Below, piece by piece: positions 4,345 to 60,226 of a DNA stretch of 60,226 nucleotides. This DNA is from a virus, in IMG/VR virus record IMGVR_UViG_3300045988_163836; one strand, 5' to 3'. The notes beneath the pieces were generated by a model. It was not told the DNA's origin, searched no databases, and saw only the letters and a list, made by a program, of their open reading frames with translations. The position numbers and the translations under genes were made by a program. The stretch's first letter is position 1, and every line of letters starts with the position of its first letter.

Positions 4345-4757
4345 GCAAGGTAATGTCTGGTCCAGGCAATCCTTTTGTATTTAATCAAATGGATTATTTA
4401 ATGGGTCGTATTAAAAAAGAAGACACATTACATAAATACCATGTTCTGCTTAAATCAGGTCAAGTTATTCTTGAAGACTATTGGTGTTGGCATGGTCATA
4501 AATGGTATAAAGCATTAATTAAATGCTTTGATGATTTTTATATTGTAATTACTACTGAAGAAGATGTAATTAGTATAGAAAAAATAGAAAATCCAACAGT
4601 AGATTCTATCTATATAGAATATATATTGGCAAGCAGACTGAGAGGAGATGAAGTTGATGGCGACTCTATATATGATGTGCGGCTTGAGTGCAAATGGAAA
4701 GACTACATTCGCGAAATCCTTCGCAAAGATGAATCACATCCGGTATGTAAACCCTGA
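4329..4757 (+). CDS. hypothetical protein
   Basis: Track ORF; its 3' end overlaps the next gene in another frame. Confidence 0.35.
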   Translation: MEFDMSKVMSGPGNPFVFNQMDYLMGRIKKEDTLHKYHVLLKSGQVILEDYWCWHGHKWYKALIKCFDDFYIVITTEEDVISIEKIENPTVDSIYIEYILASRLRGDEVDGDSIYDVRLECKWKDYIREILRKDESHPVCKP

Positions 4758-5193
4758 TGAATTGTATGCTGTCTTCAATGGTGATGAATGCAACCGCTGT
4801 CATAAGTTCGAAGTTTGGCAGACATTATATCAGATTGTACATTGTGCAGAGATGGATAAGGCAGATATTATCATTGATACTAATTGTTTGACTCTTGGAC
4901 AGAGAGAAGAAATCAGAAGCCGTTTTCCTCATTTTGATAACTACCAGCTTATGGTTATTATCGCTAGTGTAGAAAATTCAAAGGAATGGAACTCCAAGAG
5001 ACATAGAGTTGTGCCGCAGCAGGAGCTTGAACGGCAGGCACGTATTGTAGATTGGCCTGATTTGACTGATCATTATAATGGTTGGAATAGTATTAGATAT
5101 TATTATAATGATGGCTCTCTGTTTACTAAATATCGTGAAATTTATGATGGCGAAGACCATGATCTGCGACAGAAGAAGGAGGATAATAAGTAA
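4654..5193 (+). CDS. P-loop NTPase / kinase-like protein
   Basis: Walker A motif GLSANGKTT near the N-terminus; about 180 aa. Confidence 0.55.
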   Translation: MMATLYMMCGLSANGKTTFAKSFAKMNHIRYVNPDELYAVFNGDECNRCHKFEVWQTLYQIVHCAEMDKADIIIDTNCLTLGQREEIRSRFPHFDNYQLMVIIASVENSKEWNSKRHRVVPQQELERQARIVDWPDLTDHYNGWNSIRYYYNDGSLFTKYREIYDGEDHDLRQKKEDNK

Positions 5194-8732: not shown

Positions 8733-10397
8733 ATGACAGATTTGAGGACACTCATTCCAGAAGAAGAAAAGAATCTGCTGCATGATTATATTAAAGAGTA
8801 CCTTCATTCTGATAATTACTGCACTGTAGATGAAATTAATCATCTTCTGCGGTTTTGGGCTGCTGAAAAGCCTGACCTGTATGAGTTGCTTGGTAATAAT
8901 TTGATGGTCGAAGACCATATTTCCTATCAGGCATCTGGAGATGATTTGATGGATAAATTCGGTGAAATGTATGAAGAAATTTATAATAATCCTGAATTAG
9001 CAAACGTCAAAAAATTCATTGATTCTTACGAGCAAATTACTAATATTTATTATTCTTGGATGGATACCACTCTTGATAAAGATGAACGTGTTAATTGTTG
9101 TAGCATGATTGACCATTGCCTTGATAGTGAATCTCTCGTAGCCAATAAAAATGTATATATGTTTGATTGGGGTCGCAAATCTGTTGTTATTCGCCGTGGT
9201 CCGCATGCAGATACTTCGAAGCCGCTTGAGTTGAAGAGTGATATGAAGCTGATGCGAATGATGGCTAAAATTGTCGATTGGTTTGAGCTGGATAAAGAAG
9301 CATTTGAGCAGTTTCGTATTCTTCATTCGCGTGTTTTGAATGATCGTATGATTAATGCTGATATTGTACTCTCTATTCATCCGCTTGATTATCTTACTAT
9401 GAGTGATAATGCTTGTGATTGGGAGAGTTGTATGAACTGGTATCAGGGCGGTGATTATCGTCTTGGCACTGTTGAAATGATGAATTCTCCTGTCATCCTT
9501 GAAGCATATGTTGAATCCGAGCATCCTTATTGTCCTATTGACCGTGACAAAAGAACTTGGAGTAATAAGCGTTGGCGGTGTCTTTATATTGTTAATAAGG
9601 ATATTATCACTGAAATTAAGCAGTATCCTTATAACAATATTTATCTGCGTGATTATGTGCTGAATAAAATTAAGCAGTTAGCTGAACAGAATATGGGCTG
9701 GCATTACGACGATAAGATGTATGAGGTTTGGCAGAATCAGAGCAATGATACTGATTTTGGTCAGGTTTATATCCGCATGAGAACTGGAGCTATGTATAAT
9801 GATTATTATGATAATCATTATGCTTATATCAATCCAGAAGTAAAAGAAGTAGAAGTTTACTATTCTGGTGTAGCTGAATGTATGTGCTGCGGTAAAGGCT
9901 ATGAAGCTGATCCGAGTGGAAATGTAGATGCATTTGTAGAATGTGATAAAGTCGTATGTGCAACCTGTGAAGGCAAAGTCCAGTGTGATGATTGTGGCTC
10001 TTGGATTGATAGTGAAGATGCTTGGTTCTGTGAAGGGGACGGTGCAACTTATTGTAGCTGGTGTGCAGATGGCCGCACTCAGACTTGTAGCTGTTGCGGA
10101 GAAACTAAATGGCTTGATTATGATTTCAAGAAGCAGGCTCTTCCCTATATGTTTGAAGTAAAAACTCCTAATGGTAAGCATCGTCGTGATGTTGGAAATC
10201 CCATTGATGTCTGTGATGATTGTTATGAAGATTATGATTTTGGTGATGCACCGAAGGAGCCAGACTTGTGGGGCGATTTTCAGTATATTGATGTTGACAA
10301 GGCAGATAAAAAGGTATGGGAGCCATTTCTGTCCCTTGAAAGAATTGCTGATGCCAAGATGCGGCTAAAGGCGACTTATCCTGATGATTATGTTTAG
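8733..10397 (+). CDS. paralog family protein 1 (SIHPLDY...CMNW core, C-terminal CxxC Zn-ribbon array)
   Basis: Shares SIHPLDYLTMSDNACDWESCMNW...GTVEMMNSP with the ORFs at 14749 and 18988. C-terminus is rich in CxxC pairs. Confidence 0.6.
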   Translation: MTDLRTLIPEEEKNLLHDYIKEYLHSDNYCTVDEINHLLRFWAAEKPDLYELLGNNLMVEDHISYQASGDDLMDKFGEMYEEIYNNPELANVKKFIDSYEQITNIYYSWMDTTLDKDERVNCCSMIDHCLDSESLVANKNVYMFDWGRKSVVIRRGPHADTSKPLELKSDMKLMRMMAKIVDWFELDKEAFEQFRILHSRVLNDRMINADIVLSIHPLDYLTMSDNACDWESCMNWYQGGDYRLGTVEMMNSPVILEAYVESEHPYCPIDRDKRTWSNKRWRCLYIVNKDIITEIKQYPYNNIYLRDYVLNKIKQLAEQNMGWHYDDKMYEVWQNQSNDTDFGQVYIRMRTGAMYNDYYDNHYAYINPEVKEVEVYYSGVAECMCCGKGYEADPSGNVDAFVECDKVVCATCEGKVQCDDCGSWIDSEDAWFCEGDGATYCSWCADGRTQTCSCCGETKWLDYDFKKQALPYMFEVKTPNGKHRRDVGNPIDVCDDCYEDYDFGDAPKEPDLWGDFQYIDVDKADKKVWEPFLSLERIADAKMRLKATYPDDYV

Positions 10398-10476
10398 TTT
10401 AAATTCTTGCCAAAATTGAATACTCGAAAATTTATAAAAAATTTGATATAATATATATAGAAAGGATGGGAGAGAT

Positions 10477-11639: not shown

Positions 11640-11652
11640 GGAGTTGATAATT

Positions 11653-12459
11653 ATGAATTACCATTTAGATAAATGGGTTATGGATAAAGTAGAAACTCAT
11701 TTAGAAGCAGTTAATGTCAGAGGAGAAAATTGGGTTAGCTTAATGGCTTATGGTAGCCAGAACTATGGTCTTGATACTCAATTGTCTGATGTAGATACCC
11801 GGCTTATTGTTCTTCCTTCATTTGAAGATATTGTATTGAATAAAAAGCCAGTGTCTTATACCAAGATTCTTCCTAATGATGAACACATTGATTTTAAAGA
11901 TATTCGTTTGTTCATTGATTGTTTGAAGAAACAGAATATGGCATATCTTGAATGTATCTTCACACCTTATAAAATGGCATCAAGCGTGTATTGGAATGAG
12001 TGGCAGGCACTGCTTAATGAGCGTGAAGCTATTGCACGTTATAATCCTTACAAGGCAGTTAAGACAATGAAGGGTATTGCTATGGAAAAATATCATGCAA
12101 TGGAGCATAGATATCCTACTAAAACTCATCTGATTGATACATATGGTTATGATAGTAAGCAGCTTATGCATTTGCTTCGTATCGAACAGTATCTTGGACG
12201 TTATATTGATGAGGTTAAGTATGCTGATTGTCTTCAGGCACCAAGGGGTGATTATCTTCTTGCTGTAAAAAATTATCACTATGATCTTGAAACTGCACGA
12301 ATTGTAGCAAATACTGCTATTAATAATATTACAAGAGTAGCTGATGATTATTGTTCTAAGACCAAGGATGAAGGTAATGAAGAACTTGAAGATTTTATGA
12401 ATAAGATTGTTTATCTTATTATGAAAAAAAGAATTGTAAAGGAAATGTTAAATGTCTGA
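11653..12459 (+). CDS. nucleotidyltransferase (Pol-beta superfamily)
   Basis: GSQNYGLDTQLSDVD matches the GS..G..SDxD minimal NTase motif. Confidence 0.55.
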   Translation: MNYHLDKWVMDKVETHLEAVNVRGENWVSLMAYGSQNYGLDTQLSDVDTRLIVLPSFEDIVLNKKPVSYTKILPNDEHIDFKDIRLFIDCLKKQNMAYLECIFTPYKMASSVYWNEWQALLNEREAIARYNPYKAVKTMKGIAMEKYHAMEHRYPTKTHLIDTYGYDSKQLMHLLRIEQYLGRYIDEVKYADCLQAPRGDYLLAVKNYHYDLETARIVANTAINNITRVADDYCSKTKDEGNEELEDFMNKIVYLIMKKRIVKEMLNV

Positions 12460-12656: not shown

Positions 12657-13436
12657 ATGTTCAAGGACTATCTGATTAGAGGCGATTGTCATGGTGATTT
12701 CACATGGCTTAATGCAAGAATGTTTAGAATTTTAAATCCAAAAGACTACGCAATTATTATCCTTGGAGACTGCGGTTTTAATACTGGTAGTGCATTCAGA
12801 GATAATATGAAGAAAGAATATGCAAGCCAGTTTGGATATTTTATTTATTGCGTGCATGGCAATCATGAAGTACGTCCTGAAAACGTTGAAGGTATGGAGC
12901 GTGTTTGGGATAGCAATGTTCAGGCTAATGTATGGTATGAGCCGACTCACCCTCTGATTAGATATTTTGATAATTACGGGATTTATTATCTTAAAACCGA
13001 AGATAGAGAATATCGTACATTAGTTATTGGTGGTGCTTATTCTGTTGATAAATATTATCGTCTTAAAAACAATTTGCTTTGGTGGGAAGATGAACAATTA
13101 AATAATAAAGAAAAAGTTGATGCTGAAATGCTTATTCGACAAACTAATAAGCATTTTGATCTTGTACTATCACACACCTGCCCTTATTCTCTTAGGCCAG
13201 TTGATAAATTCCTTTCAATAGTAGATCAATCTACCGTAGATACTTCTATGGAAGAATGGCTTGAAGAAATTAAGAATATGATTACATATGATGTATGGCT
13301 CTTTGGTCATTATCATTGTGATAGATTTATTAATAAGCATAATATTATCTTTTTTAATTGTATCGACCCTTTGGAAGATATTTTCCTCTGGCATGATAAA
13401 ATGGATGATGCTGTAAATAATATTGACCGCTTTTGA
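12657..13436 (+). CDS. calcineurin-like metallophosphoesterase
   Basis: Motifs RGDCHGD, ILGDCGFN and VHGNHE. Confidence 0.6.
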   Translation: MFKDYLIRGDCHGDFTWLNARMFRILNPKDYAIIILGDCGFNTGSAFRDNMKKEYASQFGYFIYCVHGNHEVRPENVEGMERVWDSNVQANVWYEPTHPLIRYFDNYGIYYLKTEDREYRTLVIGGAYSVDKYYRLKNNLLWWEDEQLNNKEKVDAEMLIRQTNKHFDLVLSHTCPYSLRPVDKFLSIVDQSTVDTSMEEWLEEIKNMITYDVWLFGHYHCDRFINKHNIIFFNCIDPLEDIFLWHDKMDDAVNNIDRF

Positions 13437-14748: not shown

Positions 14749-16392
14749 ATGACACCTTATGAAGCATTAACGGCCCAAGATAAGAAATATATTACTGAAT
14801 ATATTGAAAAATGGGGTGGCATTAATTCCCCCGTTAAACTTAAAGCCCCTCTTGATTATATCCTTCGAGAATGGAATAAGAGTAAGCAAACTCTGTTTGA
14901 TATTTTTGGTGAAAAGTTAATGCTGGAGAAGGAAATCCAGGTTGAAGATGGAGATAATAAAAAAATAAGAGAAGTTAGTGAATATCTCTATAGTTTTAAT
15001 CCTGGTATTAATTTTATTAAGAATCTTCGTAAGTTATTTGAGCTTAATAATATTTATTTTGACGATAGTTATGCAACAAAACATGCAATATATAATTTAA
15101 TTCAAGCTTATCAACTTTTTACTAATAGAGTTGCTAAAGGATTTATTTATCATAATAAAGATGGTAAGGCAGTTAAAGTTCCAGAAGGAGCCAAGGTAAT
15201 GAAAGTTCTTCAAAAAATGGCTAAAGAATTTGATTTACCTGATTTTGAAATTTTCCGCAATCATATTTCACGTATTACCGAAGTACGCAAATCTAAAATC
15301 AAATTTACTCTATCTATTCATCCTTTGGATTATATGACTATGAGCGATAATGCAAATGGATGGGAAAGTTGTATGAACTGGACTCAAGGACCAGGAAGTT
15401 ATCGTGCTGGTACTATTGAGATGATGAATAGTCCATTAGTTGTTATAGCATATATTACTACTAAACCTTATTATCCAGCAAACACTTCTATTGAATGGAC
15501 TTCTAAAAGCTGGAGAGAATTAATTATTGTCCATCCGAATGCTATTTGTTCTGTAAAATCTTATCCTTATTATAATATTGCATTTGATAAAGCTCTTGTA
15601 AATTGGCTTGTTGATTTGGTTGAAGAAAAAACTGAATGGCGTTATAACAGAAAAAAGCCACAAGAGAGTTTGGAAAGTTGCTCTTATATTGGAGCTTGGC
15701 AAGATAAAGAAGATAAGAATAATCATTTTCTGTTGGATTTTGCAACAAATGAAATGTATAATGATTTTGGTAATACAGAGAATTATGGAATTTTTTCAAT
15801 TAATTCACCAAACAATAAATATCGTACATTTACAATTAATTATTCTGGTTTAATGACTTGTATGTGCTGCGGCGAGGATGCTTATTGGTCTGATGATACT
15901 GAAATGGTGGTTTGTGAAGACTGTGATCCACCCACTTATTGTTATTGCTGTGGCGAACGAGTTAATGCAAATGATGCAATTGAAGTAGATGGTGAATTGG
16001 TTTGCGAAGATTGTTATCATGATTTGCATAGATGCTTATGCTGTGAGGATGCTCATTTTGATGAAGATTTCACTACTGTATTTGTTGGACATATTGAAAA
16101 TCAAACTATTAATATTGATTATGATGAACATTATATTTGTAGTGAATGTCTTGCTAATAAAGAATATTTAAAGTATCTTGGAGATACTGATATTAGAGCT
16201 GAAACAATTCGATTGGATGGCGGTCCTTATTATGGTATGGTGGCTCTTTTAATTGAAGAAGATGATTTAAATGTAGAGGCTAAAAAGATAATTTCTAATG
16301 ATCCTTATTCTACTATAATTACTGATTATACTTATGCTATTCGTCGTTATCCTGAGCGTTTTTATAGTTACAATAGGTCAATCGCGATTTAA
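14749..16392 (+). CDS. paralog family protein 2
   Basis: SIHPLDYMTMSDNANGWESCMNW...GTIEMMNSP plus a C-terminal CxxC array. Confidence 0.6.
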   Translation: MTPYEALTAQDKKYITEYIEKWGGINSPVKLKAPLDYILREWNKSKQTLFDIFGEKLMLEKEIQVEDGDNKKIREVSEYLYSFNPGINFIKNLRKLFELNNIYFDDSYATKHAIYNLIQAYQLFTNRVAKGFIYHNKDGKAVKVPEGAKVMKVLQKMAKEFDLPDFEIFRNHISRITEVRKSKIKFTLSIHPLDYMTMSDNANGWESCMNWTQGPGSYRAGTIEMMNSPLVVIAYITTKPYYPANTSIEWTSKSWRELIIVHPNAICSVKSYPYYNIAFDKALVNWLVDLVEEKTEWRYNRKKPQESLESCSYIGAWQDKEDKNNHFLLDFATNEMYNDFGNTENYGIFSINSPNNKYRTFTINYSGLMTCMCCGEDAYWSDDTEMVVCEDCDPPTYCYCCGERVNANDAIEVDGELVCEDCYHDLHRCLCCEDAHFDEDFTTVFVGHIENQTINIDYDEHYICSECLANKEYLKYLGDTDIRAETIRLDGGPYYGMVALLIEEDDLNVEAKKIISNDPYSTIITDYTYAIRRYPERFYSYNRSIAI

Positions 16393-17908: not shown

Positions 17909-18907
17909 ATGGGTAAAAAAGTTTTAGTTCCTGAGTTTACTGAAAATTGTAGAGGGCTTTTGGAAGGACTATTCAAGATTAGCGAAGTAGGTCTTTTGAA
18001 AGCTCTTGGTGATTTTGTATCTAATAAATATTCTAATGTAGAGATTACAGAAGATTATGTATATGCTGAAGGCAATATTCCTGTTATGCTTATCGCACAT
18101 GTAGATACTGTATTTAGACAGCCAATTCGTCAATTTACTTATAATGAGAAAAGAGCTGTTTATAAAGGCAAGGAAGGTCTTGGAGCAGATGATAGAGCAG
18201 GTGTTTTTGCGATTATTCAGATTTTACGCAAAAAGTATAGACCTTATGTTCTTTTTACAACAGATGAAGAAATGGGTGGCTATGGGGCACATATATTTGT
18301 TGAAGAACATCCAGTAGCTCCAAATATTAAGTACATGATTGAGCTTGATAGAGCTGGTGAAAGAGATTGTGTCTTCTATGAGTGTGAAAATTTTACGTTC
18401 ATGGATTATGTTGAAAGTTTCGGCTTTAAGCAAGCAATTGGATCATTTACAGATATTAGTATTATTATGCCTGAATGGGAAATTGCCGGAGTAAATTTAT
18501 CAGTTGGCTATCATCATGAACATACTCAAAATGAAGATTTGCATATTAGAACATTGTATAATACAATTAATAAAGTATGTAAAATGCTTGATGATATCGA
18601 AAATGCAGATAAATATAAATTTATTCCTAGCAAGGAATATCTTCAGTGGATTACATTAACTAATAAATATCATATGCCTTATGATTTTGATGATGATAAA
18701 CTTCTTAATTGTAGTTTTTGTAATCAGTTATATTATGAGTGGGAAGATTTTCCTCTTGATATTGATGGAGTAAAGGTCCATGTATGTCCTGAATGTTTAG
18801 CACTTGATCCTAATATTCATCAATGTGAAAGATGTTATAATTTATTTTATTCAAATAATATGAAAGAAAGAGTATGTAATAAATGTCGAGTCCCTATTGT
18901 AATTTAA
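17909..18907 (+). CDS. M20/M28/M42-family metallopeptidase-like protein with C-terminal Zn-ribbon
   Basis: Motifs IAHVDTVF, GADDRAG and FTTDEEMGGYGA; C-terminal CxxC...CxxC. Confidence 0.5.
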   Translation: MGKKVLVPEFTENCRGLLEGLFKISEVGLLKALGDFVSNKYSNVEITEDYVYAEGNIPVMLIAHVDTVFRQPIRQFTYNEKRAVYKGKEGLGADDRAGVFAIIQILRKKYRPYVLFTTDEEMGGYGAHIFVEEHPVAPNIKYMIELDRAGERDCVFYECENFTFMDYVESFGFKQAIGSFTDISIIMPEWEIAGVNLSVGYHHEHTQNEDLHIRTLYNTINKVCKMLDDIENADKYKFIPSKEYLQWITLTNKYHMPYDFDDDKLLNCSFCNQLYYEWEDFPLDIDGVKVHVCPECLALDPNIHQCERCYNLFYSNNMKERVCNKCRVPIVI

Positions 18908-18987
18908 ATGAAATTAAAGAACAAGTAAAGAAGGTTATTGCCTATTCATAGGGGCTGGATATTAACCTTTTAAATATTGATAAATTA

Positions 18988-20310
18988 ATGAATGATTGGG
19001 AAGAGAATAAATGCAAATTTTATAGCAGGCTTCCTGGTAATAAATTAATTTATCAAAGCCATGCACCTATTACAATGTCTATTTCAGAAGATGATAAAAA
19101 AGCTGAATTAGATTGTTTTATTGACAACATTCGTTGGCGTTATGGCTTATTTGAATTAAGAGATTTTGTTGAAAATAATAGAAAAGATTTTTATAATAAT
19201 ATTTTAAGCGAAGATTATCCAATGAATAATGGAACTATCATTCCAAAAGGAATGAAAATAATTAAAGCATTTAAATATTTTGTAGAAGATAAGGAAATTC
19301 TTACTGAAATACAAGATAAAGCCAGTATGCTCATTCAGAATACAAAAATTAGTGGATATTTTTGTATGTCAGTTCATCCATTGGATTATCTTAGTTTAAG
19401 TGAAAATACGCATAACTGGCGGTCATGCCATGCACTTGATGGAGAATATCGGGCTGGTAATTTATCTTATATGGCAGATAATTGTACAATTATATGTTAT
19501 ATTAAGAGTGAACATGACGCAGTTTTACCTAGATTTCCAGATGATGTGCCATGGGTGGATAAGAAGTGGCGTATGCTTCTTCATGTGTCTGATGATGATA
19601 CTATGGTTATTTCAGGTCGGCATTATCCTTATGAAAGTAAAGGATTACAAGATTTTGCTCTTGAACTGTATGAAACATTTTTCGGGCAAGGATACCGTTT
19701 TACTGATTGGTGTCATGAAAAATATAATACATTTACAATAAATGATAAAATTTTTTCTAATGAAGTTCGTTTATTGCCTACGGGATACGTAATGACCCCA
19801 GATATTAAGGTTATTGTTGACCCAAAAAATCCTTTGCATTACAATGACCCTCTTCATTCTACTGTATATGACTATTGGTTTAGTATTGCTTATAGTGAAC
19901 CTTATTGGCATGAAGAAGGTATTCCACAAGATAAGTTAATTCTTCCAAGAACTCGTACCACTACTAAAGTTAATATAGGACATGATGTAAAATGCTGTAT
20001 TTGTGGTAAAAATGATTGTGTTTTAACAGATACAATGCTTTGTATTGATTGCGAACTTAAATATGGTACAGAAGAAACAGAAGATTTTACTTTCTGTAGA
20101 GAGTGCGGTAGACGTATTTATATTCCTGAAGCAATATCATTAGATGATGATGATGGTTATGTATGCCGTAGTTGCGGAGACAATTATTAGATATGTGATA
20201 ATTGTAATATGTATTATGATAAAAAAGATTTAATTTATGATGAAGAAAACAATGCTTACTATTGTGAAGCTTGTTATGATGAAATTTTATTTGATAGGGA
20301 GAATGAATAA
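18988..20310 (+). CDS. paralog family protein 3 (TAG read-through at 20188)
   Basis: SVHPLDYLSLSENTHNWRSC core. Reading TAG as Gln extends the CxxC-rich C-terminus to TAA 20308. Confidence 0.55.
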
Positions 20311-23987: not shown

Positions 23988-24078
23988 AGTATAAAAAGTC
24001 TTGGGTAAATTTCTTAATTTGAAAAAATTAAAAAAATATAATATAATATATAAGTAATCAATAAGAAATTAAATAAAT

Positions 24079-24226
24079 GGGGTCGTGGCCAAGCGGTAAG
24101 GCCGGCAACTTATCCAAGATTAGTTTAAATGGTAAAATAGTCTATGCGCAAGAAAGATGTGAGTTCAAACCTAACATTTTGGGCCAAATTGCCAAATCGT
24201 TGGTTCGAATCCAACCGGCCCCACCA
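24079..24226 (+). tRNA. tRNA (Gln-like D-arm) with about 78-nt ORF-less intervening sequence in the anticodon loop
   Basis: Acceptor ggggtcg/cggcccc, D gcc-aagcggtaa-ggc, anticodon stem ggcaa...ttgcc, T gttgg-ttcgaat-ccaac, a-cca. Insert helix ccaagat/attttgg is adjacent to the anticodon stem. Anticodon is ambiguous (UAU, UCA or CCA depending on splice position). Confidence 0.55.
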
Positions 24227-25575: not shown

Positions 25576-26139
25576 TTGCCAAAAGCCTTAGATTTAACGA
25601 ATAAAGTATTTGGAAATTTAAAATGTATTTAGAAAGCTCCTACTAGAAATAAAAAGACTTATTGGGAATGTGAATGTTTATTATGCGGAACTCATAAAAT
25701 TATTTAGACTTGTCATTTAACAGATGGTAGAACTACAAGTTGCGGGTAGCATAATGAAAATAATCTTTTTAATATTAGCAAAGAAAAGCAATGCTTAATT
25801 TGTGGAGAAAAGTTTATAACTAATAATCCTAAAAGAAAATATTGTTTTAATTGTTCTCCAGACAATATATCAGCAGCTGACCGATTAAGACATATCAAAA
25901 GAATTATTAAACATAAATTAATAGTATATAAAGGCGGAAAATGTGAAATTTGTGGTTATGATAAATGTGAAGGAGCTTTATAGTTTCATCATTTAAATCC
26001 GCAAGAAAAAGAATTTACAATTTCTCAAGTAAATTTAAATGAAGGTGAATTTTCTTTTGAAAATTTATTAAAAGAAGTTGATAAATGTTAGTTATTATGT
26101 GCTAATTGTCATGCTGAACAACATTATAAAATTGAATGA
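25576..26139 (+). CDS. HNH homing endonuclease (TTG start, 5 in-frame TAG)
   Basis: CxxC...GAL-TAG-FHHLNP...DKC-TAG-LLCANCHAEQH. TAG aligns with Gln of NFQLLCPNCH in the 59479 HNH gene. The stop overlaps the start of tRNA-Lys. Confidence 0.65.
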
Positions 26140-26745: not shown

Positions 26746-27302
26746 GCGGGATTAGCTCAGCTGGTTAGAGCGTTTGGTTTACTCGGCAAACTCTTTTAAT
26801 TTCTATTTTATGACACGAAATTCTAAAGAAGTCGGTAATTTAGCAGAATTACAATGTATTACTGGTCTTTATGAACTGGGATGTGATATTTCATTTCCTT
26901 TTGGAAATAGTCAAAAGTATGATTTAATTATGGATTATAAAGGTAAACTTTATAAAGTTCAAGTTAAACATGCTAAAGATGAATATACATTAGGAGAAAT
27001 TACACATTTTTCTTTTGCTACGAGATGGCAAAGTCATAATACGACTGGTTATAAAAAAACTCCATACACAAAAAATGATATTGATTTTTTCGCTACTTAT
27101 CACCAAGGAAAAGTTTATTTAATTCCTGTTGAAGAATGTAGCGGAGCTACTAAATCTATTCGTTATACCCCCCCTAAAAATGGACAACGAATTGGTATTA
27201 ATTTTGCTCAAGATTATTTGGCGGAGGAGGTGTTGAAGAAATTGTAAGAGCATTGCTAAGTAATCCAAGAGGTCATTGGTTCGAATCCAATATCCTGCAC
27301 CA
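26746..27302 (+). tRNA. tRNA-Val (UAC), anticodon loop interrupted by a 482-nt ORF-containing intervening sequence
   Basis: 5' exon gcgggat ta gctc-agctggtta-gagc g tttgg tttac (Val-like GAUUAGCUCAGCUGG). 3' exon from 27265: ccaag aggtc attgg-ttcgaat-ccaat atcctgc a cca. Junctions form an extended helix ttact/agtaa + ggcaa/ttgct. Confidence 0.7.
26810..27247 (+). CDS. intron-encoded Hjc/PD-(D/E)xK-like nuclease (paralog A)
   Basis: MTRNSKEVGNLAELQC...YDLIMDYKGKLYKVQVK matches Hjc-like ERExx...D-x-x-A...(E/Q)VK. Fills the tRNA-Val intervening sequence with about 27 nt 5' and about 17 nt 3' non-coding. Paralogs at 56076 and 57052. Confidence 0.65.
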   Translation: MTRNSKEVGNLAELQCITGLYELGCDISFPFGNSQKYDLIMDYKGKLYKVQVKHAKDEYTLGEITHFSFATRWQSHNTTGYKKTPYTKNDIDFFATYHQGKVYLIPVEECSGATKSIRYTPPKNGQRIGINFAQDYLAEEVLKKL

Positions 27303-27367
27303 ATAAATTTGAAAATTTAAAAAAAATATTATATAATATATATATAATAATAAAGGAGATATTTGAA

Positions 27368-27995: not shown

Positions 27996-28628
27996 ATGCC
28001 TAAAAAATTAACTCAAGAAGAATTTGAGCAAAGAGTTTATGAATGCGTTGGAGATAAATATTCTGTTATAAGCGAATATAATGGAAAATCTAAACCAATA
28101 GATTTAAAGTGTAATATTCATAACATTATATTTCAAGTATCGGCAGAGTGTTTTATGCGAGGTCCAAAAGAAATAAGATGTTCTTGTCCTAAATGTTCAG
28201 AAGAAAAGAAAAATGAAAAATTTTCTATAAATAGAACAGAATTAGAATGTGCTTATTGCGGAAGAAAATTTATTCGTTCAAATTCTAAATTAAATAATTC
28301 AAAAAGTGGAATATATTTTTGTTGTAGAGAACATAAAGATTTGGCTCAAAGAATAGATTTCGGATTAAAAGAAATTCAGCCAAATCATTATGGAAATGCT
28401 GTTGAAAATATTCATAACTATCGTAAAAATGCTTTTCGATATTATTCTCATAAATGTGCAGTCTGTGATTGGAATGAAGATGAAGATATCTTAGAAGTTC
28501 ATCATATTGATGAAAATCGAGATCATAATGAACTATCTAATTTAATTATTCTTTGTCCTATATGTCATAGAAAACTTAGTTCACATAAATATAAATTGAT
28601 TGATAGAGAACAAATTGTTCTTTGTTAA
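27996..28628 (+). CDS. HNH homing endonuclease
   Basis: Zn-finger CxxC pairs plus EVHHIDENRDHN...LIILCPICH; no internal TAG. Confidence 0.75.
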   Translation: MPKKLTQEEFEQRVYECVGDKYSVISEYNGKSKPIDLKCNIHNIIFQVSAECFMRGPKEIRCSCPKCSEEKKNEKFSINRTELECAYCGRKFIRSNSKLNNSKSGIYFCCREHKDLAQRIDFGLKEIQPNHYGNAVENIHNYRKNAFRYYSHKCAVCDWNEDEDILEVHHIDENRDHNELSNLIILCPICHRKLSSHKYKLIDREQIVLC

Positions 28629-28812: not shown

Positions 28813-28883
28813 CATAGAACTTGATGGAGCGTTCTATTAGTCTGATGCCTGCATTAGATTAAGTTTTATAACCATCATACTTG
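28813..28883. repeat. structured leader element, copy 2
   Basis: catagaacttgatggagcgttctattagtctgatgcctgcattagattaagttttataaccatcatacttgg. Confidence 0.6.
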
Positions 28884-28957
28884 GGGACATAGTTTATGGT
28901 AGGAAAACGTTGAATTTAATTCAAAGTCGAGGGTGCGATTCCCTCTGGCTCCACCAT
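28884..28957 (+). tRNA. noncanonical tRNA, anticodon arm ttgaa-tttaa-ttcaa (possible anticodon UUA)
   Basis: ggggaca ta gttt-atggtagga-aaac g ... agtc gaggg-tgcgatt-ccctc tggctcc a cca. The loop is 5 nt, or 7 nt (atttaat) if the last stem pair opens. Confidence 0.45.
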
Positions 28958-29162: not shown

Positions 29163-29288
29163 GAGATACATTAATCAAGCCTCCACGGGGCGTATCTTGG
29201 GTAATGCTAATTGATTAAAAAATTTTTGGTCGCGGAAAATTAATTTTGCAACCAAAATTTCCATAATATTATGGAGGAGATAATAATT

Positions 29289-29939
29289 ATGGCTTATATT
29301 TATTAGATAACAAATAATATTAATGGAAAAATTTATGTTGGTAAAACATTAAAAAATAATATTTAGGAACGTTGGAAAGAACATTTAAGAGATTATAAAA
29401 AATCTAAATATGAAAAACGTCCTTTATATAACGCAATAAATAAATATGGTCCAGAAAATTTTTCTATTAAGGAATTAGAAGAATGTTCTGCTGAAGAAGC
29501 TAGCGAAAAAGAAATTTATTGGATTGAGAAATTAAACTCTTTTAAATATGGATATAATGCTACTAAAGGAGGAGATGGCAAGATAAAATATGACCATCAA
29601 AAAATTTTAGAAGCATTAAGAATAAATCCACGTCCAATTGAAATAGCTAAATTATTTAATTGTAGTTGTGATTTAGTTCAATAGATAGCTAAAGAACACC
29701 AAATTTAGATAATTAATCAAAGTAATGAATAGATGAAAAAAGAAAAATCCAAAAGTATTAGGCAATATAATAAAAATGGAATATTAATTAATACTTTTGA
29801 TTCTGTAGCAGAAGCTGGACAATGGTGTTTTGAAAATAAAAAATGTCTAAATTATAATTCTGGAGTTAGAAGTCATATTGCTGAATGTGCAAATGGAAAA
29901 CGTAAAACAGCATATGGTTATATCTGGAAATATATATGA
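29289..29939 (+). CDS. GIY-YIG homing endonuclease (6 in-frame TAG)
   Basis: MAYIY-TAG-ITNNINGKIYVGKT...YWIEKLNSFKYGYN is a GIY-YIG motif. A conserved leader (agcctccacggggcg) is shared with the 54788 paralog. Lies just downstream of tRNA-Met. Confidence 0.7.
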
Positions 29940-54787: not shown

Positions 54788-55423
54788 ATGGCATACATTT
54801 ATTAGATAATAAATAATATTAATGGAAAAATTTATGTTGGTAAAACAGTAAAAAATAATATTTAGGAACGTTGGAAAGAACATCTTAAAGATTATAAAAA
54901 ACCTAGATGTGAAAAACGTCCTTTATATGACGCAATGAATAAATATGGTTCAGAAAATTTTTCTATTAAAGAGTTAGAGGAATGTCCATTAGAAGAACTT
55001 AATGATAAAGAAGTTTATTGGATTGAAAAATTAGGTTCTTTTAAATATGGATATAACGCTACAATTGGCGGAGATGGCAAACAATATATTGACTATGATT
55101 TAGTATGCGAAACATATAAGAATTTACAATGTATTGTAGATACTGCTAAACAATTAAATATTAGTGAAGATTCAGTTTCTAAAATTTTAAAATTATATAA
55201 AATTGATATTATTCCTAATGCTAAAATAGTTCAAAATAAGTATGGGAAAATAATTAATATGTATGATTTAAATGATAATTATTTAAGGACTTTTCCATCA
55301 ACAACTGAAGCAGCTAAATTTATGGTAGAAAATAAATTAACTAATTGTAAAATGACTACTATAAAACAACATATTTCTGAAGTATGCAAATGTAAACGAA
55401 ATACAGCTGCTAAGTTTAAATGA
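54788..55423 (+). CDS. GIY-YIG homing endonuclease 2 (in-frame TAG)
   Basis: MAYIY-TAG-IINNINGKIYVGKT; paralog of the 29289 gene. A long hairpin lies downstream around 55463-55545. Confidence 0.7.
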
Positions 55424-56013: not shown

Positions 56014-56569
56014 CCGGGTGTAGTTCAGTTTGGTAGAACGCTTGATTTGGGAAAAGAGATTTTTGTCTAAAAAATATGTTAGATATTACTCAACAGAAAG
56101 GAACTGTAACAGAGTTAAGATGTATTCTTGATTTAACTAATCTTGGATATAGATGTTTAAAATCTGTTGATGAAAGTTCTAAATATGATGTAGTAGCTGA
56201 TATGGGGATGGGTAAATTTATCCGTATTCAATGTAAAACATCTTCTTGGGTTACTGATACAAAAGAACCTAATGTAGCTTTTGCAATTGCTACAAGTTGT
56301 ATTACCACTAATACAAAATCTACTACTCGTCATAAGTATTCAAAAGATGATATTGATTATTTTTATACTTGGTTTGAAGGCCAAGGATATTTAGTTTCCA
56401 TTGAAGAAGCTACTGGTGCAACTTTTAGATGGCGGTATGAATATCCTTCATCTGGTCAAAAACAGGGTATTCATATCGCTAATGATTACAAAATTGAGGA
56501 GGTCTTAAAGACAATCTAAGATTTTCCTGGATCAAGAGGCCGTGAGTTCAAGTCTCGCCACTCGGACCA
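56014..56569 (+). tRNA. tRNA-Pro (UGG) interrupted by about 480-nt ORF-containing intervening sequence
   Basis: 5' exon ccgggtg ta gttc-agtttggtag-aac g cttga tttggg. 3' exon from 56532: tcaag aggcc gtgag-ttcaagt-ctcgc cactcgg a cca. Junction helix tttgggaaaa/ttttcctgga plus ttgtct/agacaa. Confidence 0.7.
56076..56519 (+). CDS. intron-encoded Hjc/PD-(D/E)xK-like nuclease (paralog B)
   Basis: TELRCILDLTNLGYRCLKSV...YDVVADMGMGKFIRIQCK; fills the tRNA-Pro intervening sequence. Confidence 0.65.
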   Translation: MLDITQQKGTVTELRCILDLTNLGYRCLKSVDESSKYDVVADMGMGKFIRIQCKTSSWVTDTKEPNVAFAIATSCITTNTKSTTRHKYSKDDIDYFYTWFEGQGYLVSIEEATGATFRWRYEYPSSGQKQGIHIANDYKIEEVLKTI

Positions 56570-56918
56570 TCAGGGTTCTGTTAAAGATACATAATTGAAA
56601 AGGATTGATCTCCCTAAGTAGATTTGTATTGGAATGAAAAAATGAGGTCTAGATGACACAGATAACCTCCCCTGAACCATCCCTTTTGTTAGTAGGTTGT
56701 CGGGGTTAAATAACTAACAGTAAAGACACACGCAGCAAATATTAGATAAAATCTATGTGTTATTGGTTCAAGTCCAATATTATCTCTGTTAAGATAATTC
56801 ATCCAAAGGGTAGGATAATAGTTAATTTATTTAATGTGTCTTGTAAATTTGAATTTTAAAAAAAAATATTATATAATATATAAGTAATCAATAAGAAATT
56901 ATTAATTACTTATAATTT

Positions 56919-56997: not shown

Positions 56998-57525
56998 AGG
57001 TCAGTACAGTGTAATTGGTATCACCCCTGACTGGTTTGAAGGAGGTTCATTTTGTAGTCAAAAAGTAACAAAGATAAAGGACGTTTTGGATTAGCTATGG
57101 CTATTGCCTATTTCACTGACAAAGGCTATACAGTCTCAACTCCTTTAAATGATACTCAGTGGTATGATTTAATTATAGAACGAAATGGTAAATTTTAGAC
57201 AGTTCAATGTAAATGTACTGGAAGTTAGGATAATGTTATAATGTTAAGATCTTGCGGTGGTACTAAAGGAACTGTTTATGATAATGTTTTAAATCATTCT
57301 GAGCTTGATTTATTATTTTGTATAGATGTTCAAGGTAATATGTATGTAATTCCATTAAAAGAAATTTTAAAATCAGGAAATACAAAATAGATTACTTTAC
57401 GAACAGCTCCAACAAGCAATAATCAAGGCTTTTAGACTTATAAATTTCGAGTTCGATTCTCGTTTCAAACACCATAAATCAGGTGCTTAATGCGGTTGTT
57501 GGTTCAAGTCCAACCTGGCCTACCA
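56998..57525 (+). tRNA. tRNA-Tyr (GUA, type II) interrupted by about 440-nt ORF-containing intervening sequence
   Basis: 5' exon aggtcag ta c agtg-taattggta-tcac c cctga ctg (to 57033). 3' exon from 57475: taaa tcagg + arm tgcttaatgcggtt + gttgg-ttcaagt-ccaac ctggcct a cca. The spliced loop CUGUAAA matches the Tyr consensus. Confidence 0.6.
57052..57477 (+). CDS. intron-encoded Hjc/PD-(D/E)xK-like nuclease (paralog C, TTG start, 6 TAG)
   Basis: KGRFGLAMAIAYFTDKGYTV...YDLIIERNGKF-TAG-TVQCK; SD aaggagg; the TAA stop overlaps the first nt of the 3' exon. Confidence 0.55.
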
Positions 57526-57584
57526 TTTAAAATAAAATTTGAAAATTTAAAAAAAATATTATATAATATATATATAATAAATGA

Positions 57585-58925
57585 ACTTTAAAAATTAAAT
57601 AATAATTTAATTACGGTTATAGTACAACTCAGTGCAGACTTAACACCATAAGGCTGAGAAATCGATCCACTCTGGCGGAGATTGTAGAATGGAATATTCA
57701 AAGGATACTTTGAAATTATTTCTAAATCTTTTGTAGTGATACATTAGATTCACGCATCGAAGGATGCGGCTACGGGGAGATTGTGCTGGGATAATCGCAT
57801 TTAAGGTCCTGTTCTTCTCGCTTCCATAATAGACAGCATTGTTAACAGCAATGCCGAATCCTTGTTAGGGTAAGGCTGGTAACCTTGCCAAACCAAGGAA
57901 ATACCAATAAGGAAGTTGGCAATTGATGTGGCGTAATCTACTATAAGAGAAGGTCAAGGGTCAAGTAGCCGAAATTTGCCAAGACAGTATGATATTAATT
58001 TAGTAAAAATTATTGGTAATACTATTCTGAATGGTCGGTGAAAGATAGAGGTAGTCAGTCCTCTGTGAGATTTGGCTTAGGCCGGGGCAAGAAGTTATGA
58101 AGTCGCTATTCATAGCTCAGACTTGTTTCCTTACTTACCTAATAAAATGAAGATTATTAACCAGTAGGGCGAAGGTCCGTAGTATAATTGTAATTAAGTT
58201 ATTATTTAATAACTTACGATTTCCTTTCCTGTTAAAAATAAATCATTAAATGATTTATTTGAAATGAATTATGTAGATGCTAATATAGGCGGTGGCTTGC
58301 ACATTAACCTCATTGGGTAGCCAATCCCACATCGTTAGAGGCCTCTGCGGAACCTGCTCCTATGGCTGTAGGGTTCTTACATAATCTAATCAAATAAGGT
58401 TGACTCGCCTGTTGTCCGGTGAAATGATATATCTGGAAACCGTACTGATACGTATCAGATATTTGATTAGCGTCCTAATCTTGGTTAATTAGGTAGTGGA
58501 ACAATACGCTAAACCAGCCAGCTCTCCACTATAAATAAGCTGAATAGGGATGTTTGTGGCTCACATACCAAAAAGCCATTACCAAGTGCGGAAATAAGAT
58601 CCTTGGTAGTCTCTCATATAAAGGCGTGGAAAATGAGACGTAATGGACTACGAAAAAGACATATAATAGGTAGAGTTATTATTTATTGTGTTAGATTATA
58701 GAATGAAAATCCTATTATTAAAAACTGTATATTCTACTTCCTATTGGTAGGTATTATAAGTTTAATGGTAGGTCAAAAATTTAATATATTCCAATAGCTA
58801 ATGAATGAGGTAGGCTGAAGTACTTAGTGGCGTGGGCAGGCATAGAGGCGACCTATAAATGGTTAGTGGCTATGGTGTAGTTTATTCCTATTGGATATAT
58901 TAATTTTTGTAAATATATTCTACTG
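57585..58925 (+). ncRNA. large ORF-free structured RNA candidate (GOLLD/ROOL-like by size and context)
   Basis: About 1.3 kb with no ORF of 60 aa or more on either strand, locally GC-enriched and rich in complementary stretches. Preceded by promoter motif 57545-57580 and flanked by tRNAs. Confidence 0.45.
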
Positions 58926-59087: not shown

Positions 59088-59162
59088 TCCGGCTTTGGGT
59101 AACGGTTAGCTCAGCTGACTCTAAATCAGCAAGTCTCAGTTCGACTCTGAGAGCCGGTGCCA
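59088..59162 (+). tRNA. amber suppressor tRNA (anticodon CUA), glutamine-type identity
   Basis: tccggct tt gggt-aacggtta-gctc a gctga-ctctaaa-tcagc aagt ctcag-ttcgact-ctgag agccggt g cca. Loop CUCUAAA; weak 1-72 pair (U-U) and G73, as in tRNA-Gln. Confidence 0.8.
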
Positions 59163-59261: not shown

Positions 59262-60085
59262 GCCGGTGTGGTGGAATGGTAGACACAAGGGACTTTTGAC
59301 TTAGCAAACGTTAAAATGGAGTGCCTAAGAGGAAACTCTTAGAGCAGAAGTTGGCTAAAACGGTGAATGGCTAAGAGAACGCCGTGCTAAGTTTTGGAAC
59401 ACATTCTAAAAAATTGGACGACACTCATTAAAATACCTTTTTTAATTTTTAAGTAATAATGAAAGAGAGGTAATATAAATGAGAACTGATATTTTAGAAC
59501 GCAAAGAAGAAATTGAGCAATGGATTACTGAAGGTAAAACTAAAGCTCAAATGGCAAGAGAATTGGGTTGTAATCCTAAAACAATTAATCCAGTATTAAA
59601 AAAGCTTGGTCTTGAATATGCTGGAAATCAAGGTTGTAAAGGATTGTCAAAACCCAATGGACATGAATTATCTTTGTTAGAATACTTAGAAAAAAGTATT
59701 GATATACAGAGTAATAAAGTAAGAAAAAAACTTCTTGATGAAGGTTATAAAGAGTACAAATGTGAATGTTGTGGATTAACCGAATGGTTAGGAGAACCAA
59801 TTCCTTTAGAACTTCATCATAAAGATGGAAATCATTTTAATAATGAATTAGATAATTTCCAATTATTATGCCCAAATTGTCATGCAAAAACATCTTCTTA
59901 TCGTGGAAAAAATTGTTCCAAATAAATGTGTAGAGAGTATATACCAACTATCTAAGTGCAAGTCGTGCATATGATAAAGACGTATTCCAGACTACAACAC
60001 AAAAATGTGGCTATGGTGACATAGAGTAGTAAGAAAATCCCTCGGTGGCAACACCATGCGGGTTCGAGTCCCGCCACCGGCACCA
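59262..60085 (+). tRNA. tRNA-Leu (UAA, type II) with about 738-nt group-I-like intron carrying an HNH ORF
   Basis: 5' exon gccggtg tg gtg-gaatggtaga-cac a aggga ctt (to 59295). 3' exon from 60034: aaaa tccct + arm cggtggcaacaccat + gcggg-ttcgagt-cccgc caccggc a cca. Insertion lies between 34 and 35, the classic tRNA-Leu(UAA) intron site; about 290 nt of non-coding intron sequence flanks the ORF. Confidence 0.65.
59479..59925 (+). CDS. HNH homing endonuclease (intron-encoded)
   Basis: CxxC...ELHHKDGNHFNNELDNFQLLCPNCH; intact, with no TAG. Confidence 0.75.
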   Translation: MRTDILERKEEIEQWITEGKTKAQMARELGCNPKTINPVLKKLGLEYAGNQGCKGLSKPNGHELSLLEYLEKSIDIQSNKVRKKLLDEGYKEYKCECCGLTEWLGEPIPLELHHKDGNHFNNELDNFQLLCPNCHAKTSSYRGKNCSK

Positions 60086-60226
60086 TTAAACAATAGTAGC
60101 TAACGGCAGTTGAACAGACGGGTCGGGGCTAACATAGAAAGGTTAGCAGGTAGTACGGCGGTAGGTAACAAATCCGCAAGTCGAAATGAGTCGGGAAATC
60201 CGAATGATACGGCTTAGATGTTTTCC

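Follow-up and report, generated by a model that had tools for sequence, protein, structure and literature searches.

How can a transfer RNA (tRNA) be made from a viral gene whose anticodon loop is interrupted by a nuclease gene, if the interruption carries no ribozyme? The question is raised by a stretch of 60,226 nucleotides (nt) of viral DNA, IMG/VR virus record IMGVR_UViG_3300045988_163836, referred to here at its full length as the window. In it, the genes for tRNA-Val(UAC), tRNA-Pro(UGG) and tRNA-Tyr(GUA) are each split by an insert of 441-480 nt, 91-100% of which is an open reading frame (ORF). We suggest, holding the chances to be about even, that these are functional-looking phage tRNA genes invaded by mobile introns that are processed by proteins and depend on a ligase.

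Without introns allowed, ARAGORN finds 14 tRNAs in the window and no intact tRNA-Val, tRNA-Pro or tRNA-Tyr anywhere in it. With introns allowed (-i), it adds two split genes, at 26746-27302 with an insert of 480 nt and at 56014-56569 with one of 479 nt. The tRNA-Tyr locus, 56998-57525, is not called directly even with introns allowed; its joined exons, 56998-57033 and 57475-57525, fold into an 87-nt type-II cloverleaf with A73 that reads as Tyr(GUA) only with the cut between nt 34 and 35. The three genes split in the anticodon loop, which the original prediction had placed at these positions, are thereby confirmed, and without its insert each folds into a cloverleaf that has the right identity elements. 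The parts are as follows.

26746-26782, plus strand: 5' exon of tRNA-Val(UAC), nt 1-36, anticodon TAC at 26780-26782 (ARAGORN -i)
26783-27262, plus strand: Val insert, 480 nt, with a 27-nt leader, the ORF and a 15-nt trailer (no Rfam match at E<=10)
26810-27247, plus strand: Val ORF, 145 amino acids (aa), I-Ssp6803I family, PF11645 (Pfam, PDB 2OST, AlphaFold2 model, Foldseek)
27263-27302, plus strand: 3' exon of tRNA-Val, nt 37-76, CCA encoded (ARAGORN)
26779-26804, plus strand: top strand of the extended Val helix, made of nt 33-36, insert positions +1 to +7, the invariant unpaired A(+8) at 26790 and the outer helix +9 to +22 (RNAfold, covariation in 58 sequences)
27237-27263, plus strand: bottom strand of the extended Val helix, with the last ORF codons and the stop in the outer helix, ending at A37
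56014-56050, plus strand: 5' exon of tRNA-Pro(UGG) (ARAGORN)
56051-56529, plus strand: Pro insert, 479 nt, with a 25-nt leader, the ORF and a 10-nt trailer
56076-56519, plus strand: Pro ORF, PF11645, 147 aa
56530-56569, plus strand: 3' exon of tRNA-Pro (ARAGORN)
56998-57033, plus strand: 5' exon of tRNA-Tyr(GUA), last nt G34 (type-II tRNA fold with A73 after joining of the exons)
57034-57474, plus strand: Tyr insert, 441 nt, no trailer, ends forming a tRNA-like minihelix (sequence, relatives L143, L128, L115 and L127, covariation)
57052-57477, plus strand: Tyr ORF, PF11645, 141 aa, TTG start
57475-57525, plus strand: 3' exon of tRNA-Tyr (joined-exon fold)

Here and below, L followed by a number labels the locus of a relative used in the comparisons. 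Only 42 (Val), 35 (Pro) and 18 nt (Tyr) of the inserts lie outside the ORF. The inserts are as compact as predicted, and the stop of the Tyr ORF does overlap the 3' exon, its TAA being exon nt 35-37; the trailers depart from the predicted 12-17 nt, with 10 nt in Pro and none in Tyr. The splice register of Val was set by comparing 57 relatives and an intron-less allele of the tRNA-Asn gene that is interrupted in Enterococcus phage EFP01. It places the insert between nt 36 and 37, and the ARAGORN call of Val as 'tRNA-Stop(tta)' is rejected as a wrong register. For Pro, 36/37 is the best fit, and any site from 35/36 to 37/38 yields the identical product. The cloverleaf and register analysis thus upholds the claim that the insert follows nt 34 in Tyr and lies at about 36/37 in the other two. 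The predicted exon-exon joins, marked by a slash, are GGTTTAC/ATCCAAG for Val, TTTGG/GATCAAG for Pro and CTG/TAAATCAGG for Tyr.

The Tyr ORF contains five in-frame TAG codons, in agreement with the earlier suggestion that it is written with recoded TAG. With TAG read as sense, most in-frame TAG codons of the window are found in the genes at about 37-53 kb and few in the first 20 kb. Together with a tRNA(CUA) encoded at 59088-59162, this distribution shows that TAG is recoded in this phage.

Could these inserts splice themselves? A group I intron needs a P3-P9 core of about 200 nt, while the inserts offer 18-42 non-coding nt, and Rfam returns no match at E<=10 for Val, Pro or Tyr. When 53 relatives are aligned by codon, the ratio of observed to expected synonymous-site difference is 0.87-1.2 in every 9-codon window. 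Because this profile is flat, no RNA structure is hidden in the ORF, and a group I core overlapping it is ruled out. The borders do not fit either. Group I introns pair a U at the end of the 5' exon with G and end in G; here, the junctions mostly read C/T...A/A, only one of 51 junction types has an intron-terminal G, and EFP01 has T/T...C/A. Group II introns are six-domain RNAs of more than 500 nt with a GUGYG 5' end and a reverse-transcriptase ORF, whereas these inserts have 441-480 nt, begin with TCGGC, GAAAA or GTTTG, and encode a PD-(D/E)xK nuclease. The argument of the original prediction that the inserts are too compact for a group I or group II core is borne out. Because they contain no self-splicing RNA, proteins must cut and rejoin the transcripts if the tRNAs work at all, and the claim that any tRNA function implies cutting and RNA ligation is thus supported.

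The same data bear on the idea of a cryptic ribozyme, whether as a group I core that overlaps the ORF or as a small self-splicing motif of a new type at the termini. The same endonuclease family does occur in true group I introns, in tRNA-fMet and tRNA-Arg(UCU) (PMC13011429). However, the few non-coding nucleotides, the flat synonymous profile, the near absence of a terminal G and the empty Rfam search make such a ribozyme scarcely credible, and the published tRNA group I introns that carry endonuclease genes all exceed 500 nt (PMC13011429); that of I-Ssp6803I takes 655 nt for an ORF of 150 aa (PMC1995217).

The window also holds an intron of another make. A 736-nt intron with U/...G/ borders and an HNH ORF at 59479-59925 interrupts the tRNA-Leu(UAA) gene (59262-60085) at 34/35. 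This is probably a classical group I arrangement; an Rfam search of this intron gave no group I match. A relative of it, 789 nt long, is found in L146.

What, then, is the protein that fills the inserts? All three ORFs match PF11645 (PDDEXK_5) with 64-91 bits (Val 91) against a cutoff of 26, and E-values of 1e-17 to 1e-26. Their sole significant solved relative is PDB 2OST, the homing endonuclease I-Ssp6803I (E 5e-8). The AlphaFold2 model of the Val ORF has a pLDDT of 89, and Foldseek aligns it to 2OST with a TM-score of 0.70 (E 2.5e-8). The catalytic residues of the family, D...QxK, are present; D38, Q51 and K53 are invariant in 38-39 sequences. The Tyr ORF is 26% identical to the Val ORF. 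By sequence and modelled fold the three ORFs are therefore assigned to the I-Ssp6803I / PDDEXK_5 family of homing endonucleases and not to Hjc proper. The original prediction was right in expecting paralogous PD-(D/E)xK proteins with a nuclease fold, and its comparison with I-Ssp6803I proved exact. Its label 'Hjc-like' reduces to a distant fold relation (Foldseek, Hjc resolvases, E about 0.03). It had also offered the ORF as a candidate for the excision nuclease itself, and of this we see no sign, as the archaeal (Aeropyrum) splicing endonuclease is matched only with E 0.58 over 53 columns. The family is known to cut the DNA of tRNA genes at the anticodon arm (PMC3384342).

Relatives of these ORFs are common. 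A protein search gave 220 of them, and scans of viral, metagenome and genome collections gave 105 loci. An alignment-based scan was needed, as neither blastn against phage genomes nor a scan of viral contigs with one protein found any. Of the 93 closer homologues, which come from viral, metagenome and metagenome-assembled genome contigs, about 80 have the ORF inside the anticodon loop of a tRNA, as an insert of 437-497 nt. Most of these split genes are labelled 'Stop(tta)' by ARAGORN, which is the same register error. Anchored on the anticodon stem, they have the insert at 36/37 in tRNAs with the anticodons TAC, TGC, TGT, TCT, AGT and GTT, and the TGC members carry G3:U70, which confirms them as tRNA-Ala. 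A separate 'class B' insertion site, considered for L005-L009, was dropped, since all five read as tRNA-Asp(GTC) at 36/37.

One member is found in a cultured phage. In EFP01, tRNA-Asn(GTT) contains a 463-nt insert exactly between nt 36 and 37 (CTGTT/.../AACCAGT), without target duplication, while about 29 sister Schiekvirus genomes have the same tRNA-Asn uninterrupted, with exons 100% identical to those of EFP01. This precise presence and absence between identical flanks shows that the cassette is mobile. The intron-less alleles that had been expected in related phages thus exist for the tRNA-Asn of EFP01; for the tRNA-Val of the present phage, a search turned up no intron-less copy. Because EFP01 carries the insert and its close relatives do not, the question of splicing can be tested in culture.

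Mobility raises a serious rival to splicing. An endonuclease gene that has inserted into its own target site could simply inactivate a dispensable tRNA gene, the two halves being discarded, and the terminal modules of the insert could serve to free the endonuclease mRNA (RNase P/Z 'punctuation' or duplex cleavage) or to tune its stability or translation. We regard this selfish insertion as rather unlikely, though well within reach of the data. Free-standing relatives are found beside tRNA genes in Pectobacterium phage My1, Kuttervirus and Halorubrum viruses, and the Tyr-type branch is often free-standing, with many loci 5-15 nt upstream of an intact tRNA-Tyr. Nearly all endonuclease ORFs are intact, as expected of young, actively spreading elements. 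The in-frame stops in L025, L037, L071, L081 and L089 fall where relatives have Q or E, so these endonuclease genes themselves use the recoded code with TAG=Q; ORF decay, once considered as a sign of long-kept splicing, was given up for this reason. Finally, EFP01 is viable with its insert, and no ligase was found in the window. On the other hand, all four tRNA stems stay complementary even between inserts whose ORFs are 75-88% identical, as in the anticodon stem TTTGG/CCAAG of the window and TCTGC/GCAGG of L023, and the window has its Val, Pro and Tyr tRNAs in split form only. Further points against selfish insertion come from the termini of the inserts, which have two different designs.

In the Val design, 58 distinct junction sets align without gaps. 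The anticodon stem is followed by a 32.38 mismatch, an 11-bp helix (33:37, 34:-1, 35:-2, 36:-3, then +1:-4 to +7:-10), a 1x2 internal loop with the invariant A(+8) and A(-11), and an outer helix of at least 6-8 bp that holds the last ORF codons and the stop. Over the 58 sets the helix is 93% paired, compared with 31-43% when the partner strand is slid, and 23 of the 24 pairs show compensatory changes, with frequent G-U pairs. The last three nucleotides of the insert follow the anticodon: TAC/GTA, TGT/ACA, TCT/AGA, GTT/AGC and AGT/ATT. In the window, the bottom strand of Val has a conserved GCATTG (27250-27255), and its tail GTA (27260-27262) is complementary to the anticodon. In the Pro insert the inner helix has 9 bp; the nine Pro-type sequences follow the same plan, their 7x7 internal loop being conserved and their outer helix covarying. 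That loop reads GAGAUUU / UCUAAGA in L155-L162 and at 56056-56062 / 56514-56521 of the window. A K-turn would fit seven of the nine sequences, but its key G.A pair is replaced by A.C in L161 and L162, and it is not claimed here.

Against shuffled sequences, RNAfold gives -26.3 kcal/mol and z = -6.9 for Val, z = -4.2 for Pro and z = -5.7 for EFP01, while the Tyr junction is weak (z = -1.7). The claim that all exon-insert junctions pair into a continuation of the anticodon stem thus holds for Val and Pro, where the stem is extended to a covarying helix of about 30 bp; Tyr instead forms the tRNA-like minihelix described below. These patterns suggest that selection at the RNA level acts on junction structures which include exon nucleotides and are specific for the anticodon. 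Release of an endonuclease mRNA has no need for an insert tail that covaries with each host anticodon, G-U pairs included.

The position of the borders in this helix limits which enzyme could cut there. The two sit on opposite strands, 3 bp apart, and each marks the 5' end of an arm of seven layers whose second layer is weak or mismatched. On our reading of the alignment they look pseudo-symmetric, with two 7-bp arms and a pseudo-dyad at base pair 35:-2. This geometry excludes a bulge-helix-bulge, the archaeal-type motif with two 3-nt bulges that flank a 4-bp helix and are cut within the bulges. The original prediction had proposed a relaxed form of this motif, with an EndA-like cut (leaving 2',3'-cyclic phosphate and 5'-OH) and joining by RtcB. 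Pairing between anticodon and intron is indeed a feature of archaeal and eukaryotic pre-tRNAs, and kinase and phosphoesterase genes in the window could heal such ends. But the 3-nt bulges 4 bp apart are absent, three continuous base pairs separating the borders instead, and no EndA-like protein was found, the Aeropyrum match given above being the nearest to one. We therefore hold this proposal to be highly improbable. In the Tyr insert, the 3' border sits at a boundary between helix and single strand.

The second proposal of the original prediction, in which RNase III excises the insert as it does intervening sequences in bacterial 23S rRNA and a ligase then joins the exons, fares slightly better and is still improbable. 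A mostly continuous helix of about 30 bp is long enough for an enzyme that takes duplexes of at least about 20 bp, and the ends left by RNase III (5'-phosphate and 3'-OH) can be ligated directly. However, RNase III leaves a 2-nt 3' overhang, and the Val/Pro helix needs an offset of 3 bp. From the geometry, a 2-nt stagger would produce a loop of 6 or 8 nt and not restore the 7-nt loop of the uninterrupted EFP01 allele. Moreover, the tRNA side of the cut sites has only about 8 bp.

A 3-nt stagger is what I-Ssp6803I is said to produce in DNA, where it reportedly leaves 3-nt 3' overhangs. It can be speculated that the PD-(D/E)xK dimer encoded by the insert cuts the RNA with this same stagger, the junction helix being an RNA copy of the left half and the centre of its DNA target. 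Helix nt 27-36 do equal the DNA target sequence, except at position 32, and the borders are related by the pseudo-dyad. Yet the insert half of the helix is unlike the second half-site in the DNA, members of the family are known as DNA endonucleases only, A-form RNA is a poor mimic of B-DNA, and the structure of the Tyr-type insert is quite different. We consider this idea very improbable.

The Tyr design mimics the ends of a tRNA. A terminal stem pairs GTTTGAA (57034-57040) with TTCAAAC (57464-57470). Next to it a T-arm-like hairpin, CGAG-TTCGATT-CTCG (57448-57462), is encoded in the C-terminal extension of the ORF, and the tail consists of A at 57471 and CCA at 57472-57474, directly followed by exon nt 35. 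The insert thus has a 7-bp stem on a T-arm with a discriminator and CCA, and its borders fall on processing sites of such a structure. L143 and L128 end in ACCA like the window (three members), and L115 and L127 in the bare discriminator. In an alignment of eight such termini, the terminal stem and T-arm are paired in 92.7% of the cells; sliding one strand lowers this to 29-49%. Compensatory changes occur at each of the seven pairs of the terminal stem. Thermodynamic folding of truncated Tyr-type constructs was ambiguous, and the comparative evidence was used instead. The 5' border is predicted to coincide with an RNase P site and the 3' border with a tRNA 3' end of the kind cut by RNase Z. 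An endonuclease mRNA could be released without cuts exactly at the exon borders, which again counts against selfish insertion.

Similar arrangements are seen elsewhere. At 24079-24226 a tRNA is nested in a tRNA: the outer gene has the anticodon TAT and a 36/37 junction, and the inner 73-nt element (24114-24186), which ARAGORN calls as a tRNA at a relaxed threshold, combines an acceptor-like stem of 7 bp (CCAAGAT/ATTTTGG) with a T-arm, G and CCA. ORF-less inserts of 40-76 nt, all too small for group I, are common in the anticodon loops of phage tRNAs. Some have a terminal 7-9-bp stem, a T-arm and (A)CCA, and others share a ...AACAGCAA motif. They were seen at the following loci.

L037, 2237-2385
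L054, 2019-2153
L061, 1789-1930
L071, 85-227
L114, L122 and L123, about 527-666
L147, 543-664
L151, 44-174
L258 and L266

A scan for the pattern 'T-loop...ACCA TAAA' returned mostly ordinary tandem tRNAs; its one useful case was L258/L266, an ORF-less tRNA-like mini-insert.

How could the exons be joined? In the reading that we favour, the cassette would consist of an I-Ssp6803I-type endonuclease gene and a terminal RNA 'adaptor' of a few dozen nucleotides. At the DNA level, as judged from its family, the endonuclease would cut the palindrome-like anticodon-arm DNA of an uninterrupted tRNA gene, and repair would copy the cassette in. At the RNA level, the ends of the insert would fold together with the anticodon loop, displaying both borders to protein or ribonucleoprotein nucleases. 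In Val and Pro, the anticodon would pair with the last three insert nucleotides and the borders would be exposed within the helix of about 30 bp. In Tyr, RNase P would cut at the 5' border and an RNase Z-type enzyme at the 3' border. Both enzymes leave a 3'-OH and a 5'-phosphate, ends that an ATP-dependent RNA ligase like T4 Rnl1 could then reseal to a 7-nt loop.

We favour excision by proteins and ligation because selection at the RNA level is anticodon-specific, the borders of Tyr are processing sites and the tRNA stems are retained, and also because the window has only split Val, Pro and Tyr tRNAs and contains genes for healing RNA ends. Three genes together form this predicted kit.

4648-5190: polynucleotide-kinase-like P-loop kinase (AAA_33)
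11644-12456: RlaP, an 'RNA-ligase-associated' nucleotidyltransferase
12657-13433: metallophosphoesterase

Among large phages, RlaP is distributed in the same way as RNA ligases (PMC7824862).

Several points weigh against this reading. Excision and splicing, the chemistry of the ends, the ligation and the nuclease of Val and Pro are inferred. The analysis of the 60-kb window revealed no gene for an RNA ligase, RNase P or RNase Z, and the annotation of iF6, a sister phage of EFP01, shows no RNA ligase in its first 50 kb. Since nearly all ORFs are intact, the elements may be young; the exons might then look intact only because of recent homing into intact targets and not because a working tRNA is selected for. 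Phage tRNAs are usually dispensable, and EFP01 grows with its only tRNA-Asn interrupted. We know of no bacterial nuclease that cuts an RNA helix with a 3-nt 3' stagger, as Val and Pro would need. In many bacteria, CCA-bearing tRNA-like ends are matured by exonucleases, which would destroy the 3' exon. Lastly, the alignment of the Tyr type was built by hand from eight sequences.

A more specific form of the reading, to which we give slightly less than even chances, is that these inserts are a third, ribozyme-free kind of phage tRNA intron, in which terminal adaptors hijack housekeeping RNA processing and a ligase of phage or host rejoins the exons. In this form Tyr would be cut by RNase P and an RNase Z-type enzyme, and Val and Pro by a symmetric duplex cutter, conceivably the PD-(D/E)xK dimer of the insert.

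To our knowledge, all accepted tRNA introns of bacteria and their viruses are self-splicing, and cutting and rejoining by proteins is no known route there. A review of 2014 knew of no tRNA intron in phages (PMC3984707). The closest relatives by protein are the I-Ssp6803I intron in tRNA-fMet of Synechocystis and the PF11645 introns in tRNA-Arg(UCU), which share the endonuclease family and fold, the anticodon-loop target and mobility. However, those are group I introns of 655 or more than 500 nt with a core of about 200 nt and sit at 33/34, while the present inserts have no core and no terminal G, and sit at 36/37 or 34/35. Archaeal bulge-helix-bulge introns, some of which carry homing-endonuclease genes, are likewise ribozyme-free, have a helix at the borders with anticodon pairing, and need an endonuclease and a ligase. 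They differ in geometry, in the EndA enzyme, of which no homologue is seen here, and in a LAGLIDADG in place of a PD-(D/E)xK nuclease; moreover, the present host is a bacterial virus. Intervening sequences of 23S rRNA are also inserts at a helix tip, sometimes with an ORF and with a long closing stem, and are taken out by a host nuclease (RNase III). In contrast, the rRNA pieces stay unjoined, whereas a tRNA needs religation, and the stagger is 2 and not 3 nt.

Other parts of the proposed route have counterparts as well. In the tRNA repair of T4 (cutting by PrrC, healing by Pnkp, sealing by Rnl1) phage enzymes reseal breaks in the anticodon loop, free-standing endonucleases of the SegB type live among phage tRNA genes, and by the logic of tRNA punctuation and external guide sequences RNase P and RNase Z cut wherever a mimic of acceptor stem and T-arm is presented. 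None of these has been described as a way to remove an insert from a tRNA. 'Enigmatic' tRNA introns, in Tyr-GTA and Thr-TGT, that could not be classified with Rfam were reported in Lak megaphages, which are TAG-recoded gut phages (Devoto et al. 2019, PMC6784885). One of them is tRNA-like ('may encode a tRNA'), like the element at 24114-24186 and the ends of the Tyr insert; its supplementary tables aside, the article reports no endonuclease ORFs, terminal-helix architecture or mechanism (PMC6784885).

The endonuclease family, its tRNA target and the 'enigmatic' tRNA introns of phages are thus already known. The literature searched contains no description of a ribozyme-free endonuclease cassette in tRNAs, and the cassette, its two terminal RNA designs, its prevalence and its presence in a cultured phage appear to be undescribed there. 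Covarying, anticodon-specific junctions without a ribozyme point to protein-dependent tRNA splicing outside archaea and eukaryotes. If splicing occurs, the cassette would represent a type of intron new to bacteria and their viruses and a case of a homing endonuclease that colonises a gene without a ribozyme of its own. It would also explain why automatic annotation misses or mislabels these tRNAs, as with the 'Stop(tta)' calls, and would offer a natural splicing substrate for the many phage and bacterial RNA ligases of unclear function.

The tRNA region is crowded with mobile nucleases. Besides the split genes it has further free-standing homing-endonuclease genes and related ORFs.

25576-26139: Cys-rich ORF with an HNH-like C-terminus (no Pfam match)
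27996-28628: free-standing HNH endonuclease gene
29271-29939: GIY-YIG-type paralogue (Pfam match)
54788-55423: GIY-YIG-type paralogue, sharing its N-terminal sequence with 29271-29939

A tRNA at 28883-28953 scores 48.5 bits with Rfam and is missed by ARAGORN; its anticodon arm is odd (TTGAA-TTTAA-TTCAA), and it may read UUA or UAA. Three large paralogous proteins (8733-10451, 14749-16392 and 18883-20310) share the motif HPLDY(L/M)(T/S)(M/L)S(D/E)N..W.SC and C-terminal CxxC repeats. They have no Pfam match, and the only PHROG match, for one of them, is to a family of unknown function.

Non-coding RNAs also lie among the tRNA genes. A ROOL RNA (323 bits, 57604-58197) directly follows the split tRNA-Tyr, and in L117 (1-475) a ROOL RNA directly precedes a tRNA-Tyr with a 67-nt insert, so that ROOL and tRNA-Tyr appear to be linked. 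A RAGATH-33 RNA (139 bits, 60099-60211) directly follows the tRNA-Leu gene. Two long ORF-poor stretches, 56570-56800 and 58200-58900, match no Rfam family; they are GC-rich and look structured, with a T-arm-like GGTTCAAGTCC at about 56768, and may be further non-coding RNAs. Finally, a repeated motif, TTGAAAATTTAAAAAAAATATTATATAATAT..., flanks tRNA genes at 24020-24060, 27305-27350, 56850-56890 and 57530-57580, and has the appearance of a strong phage promoter used repeatedly along the tRNA cluster.

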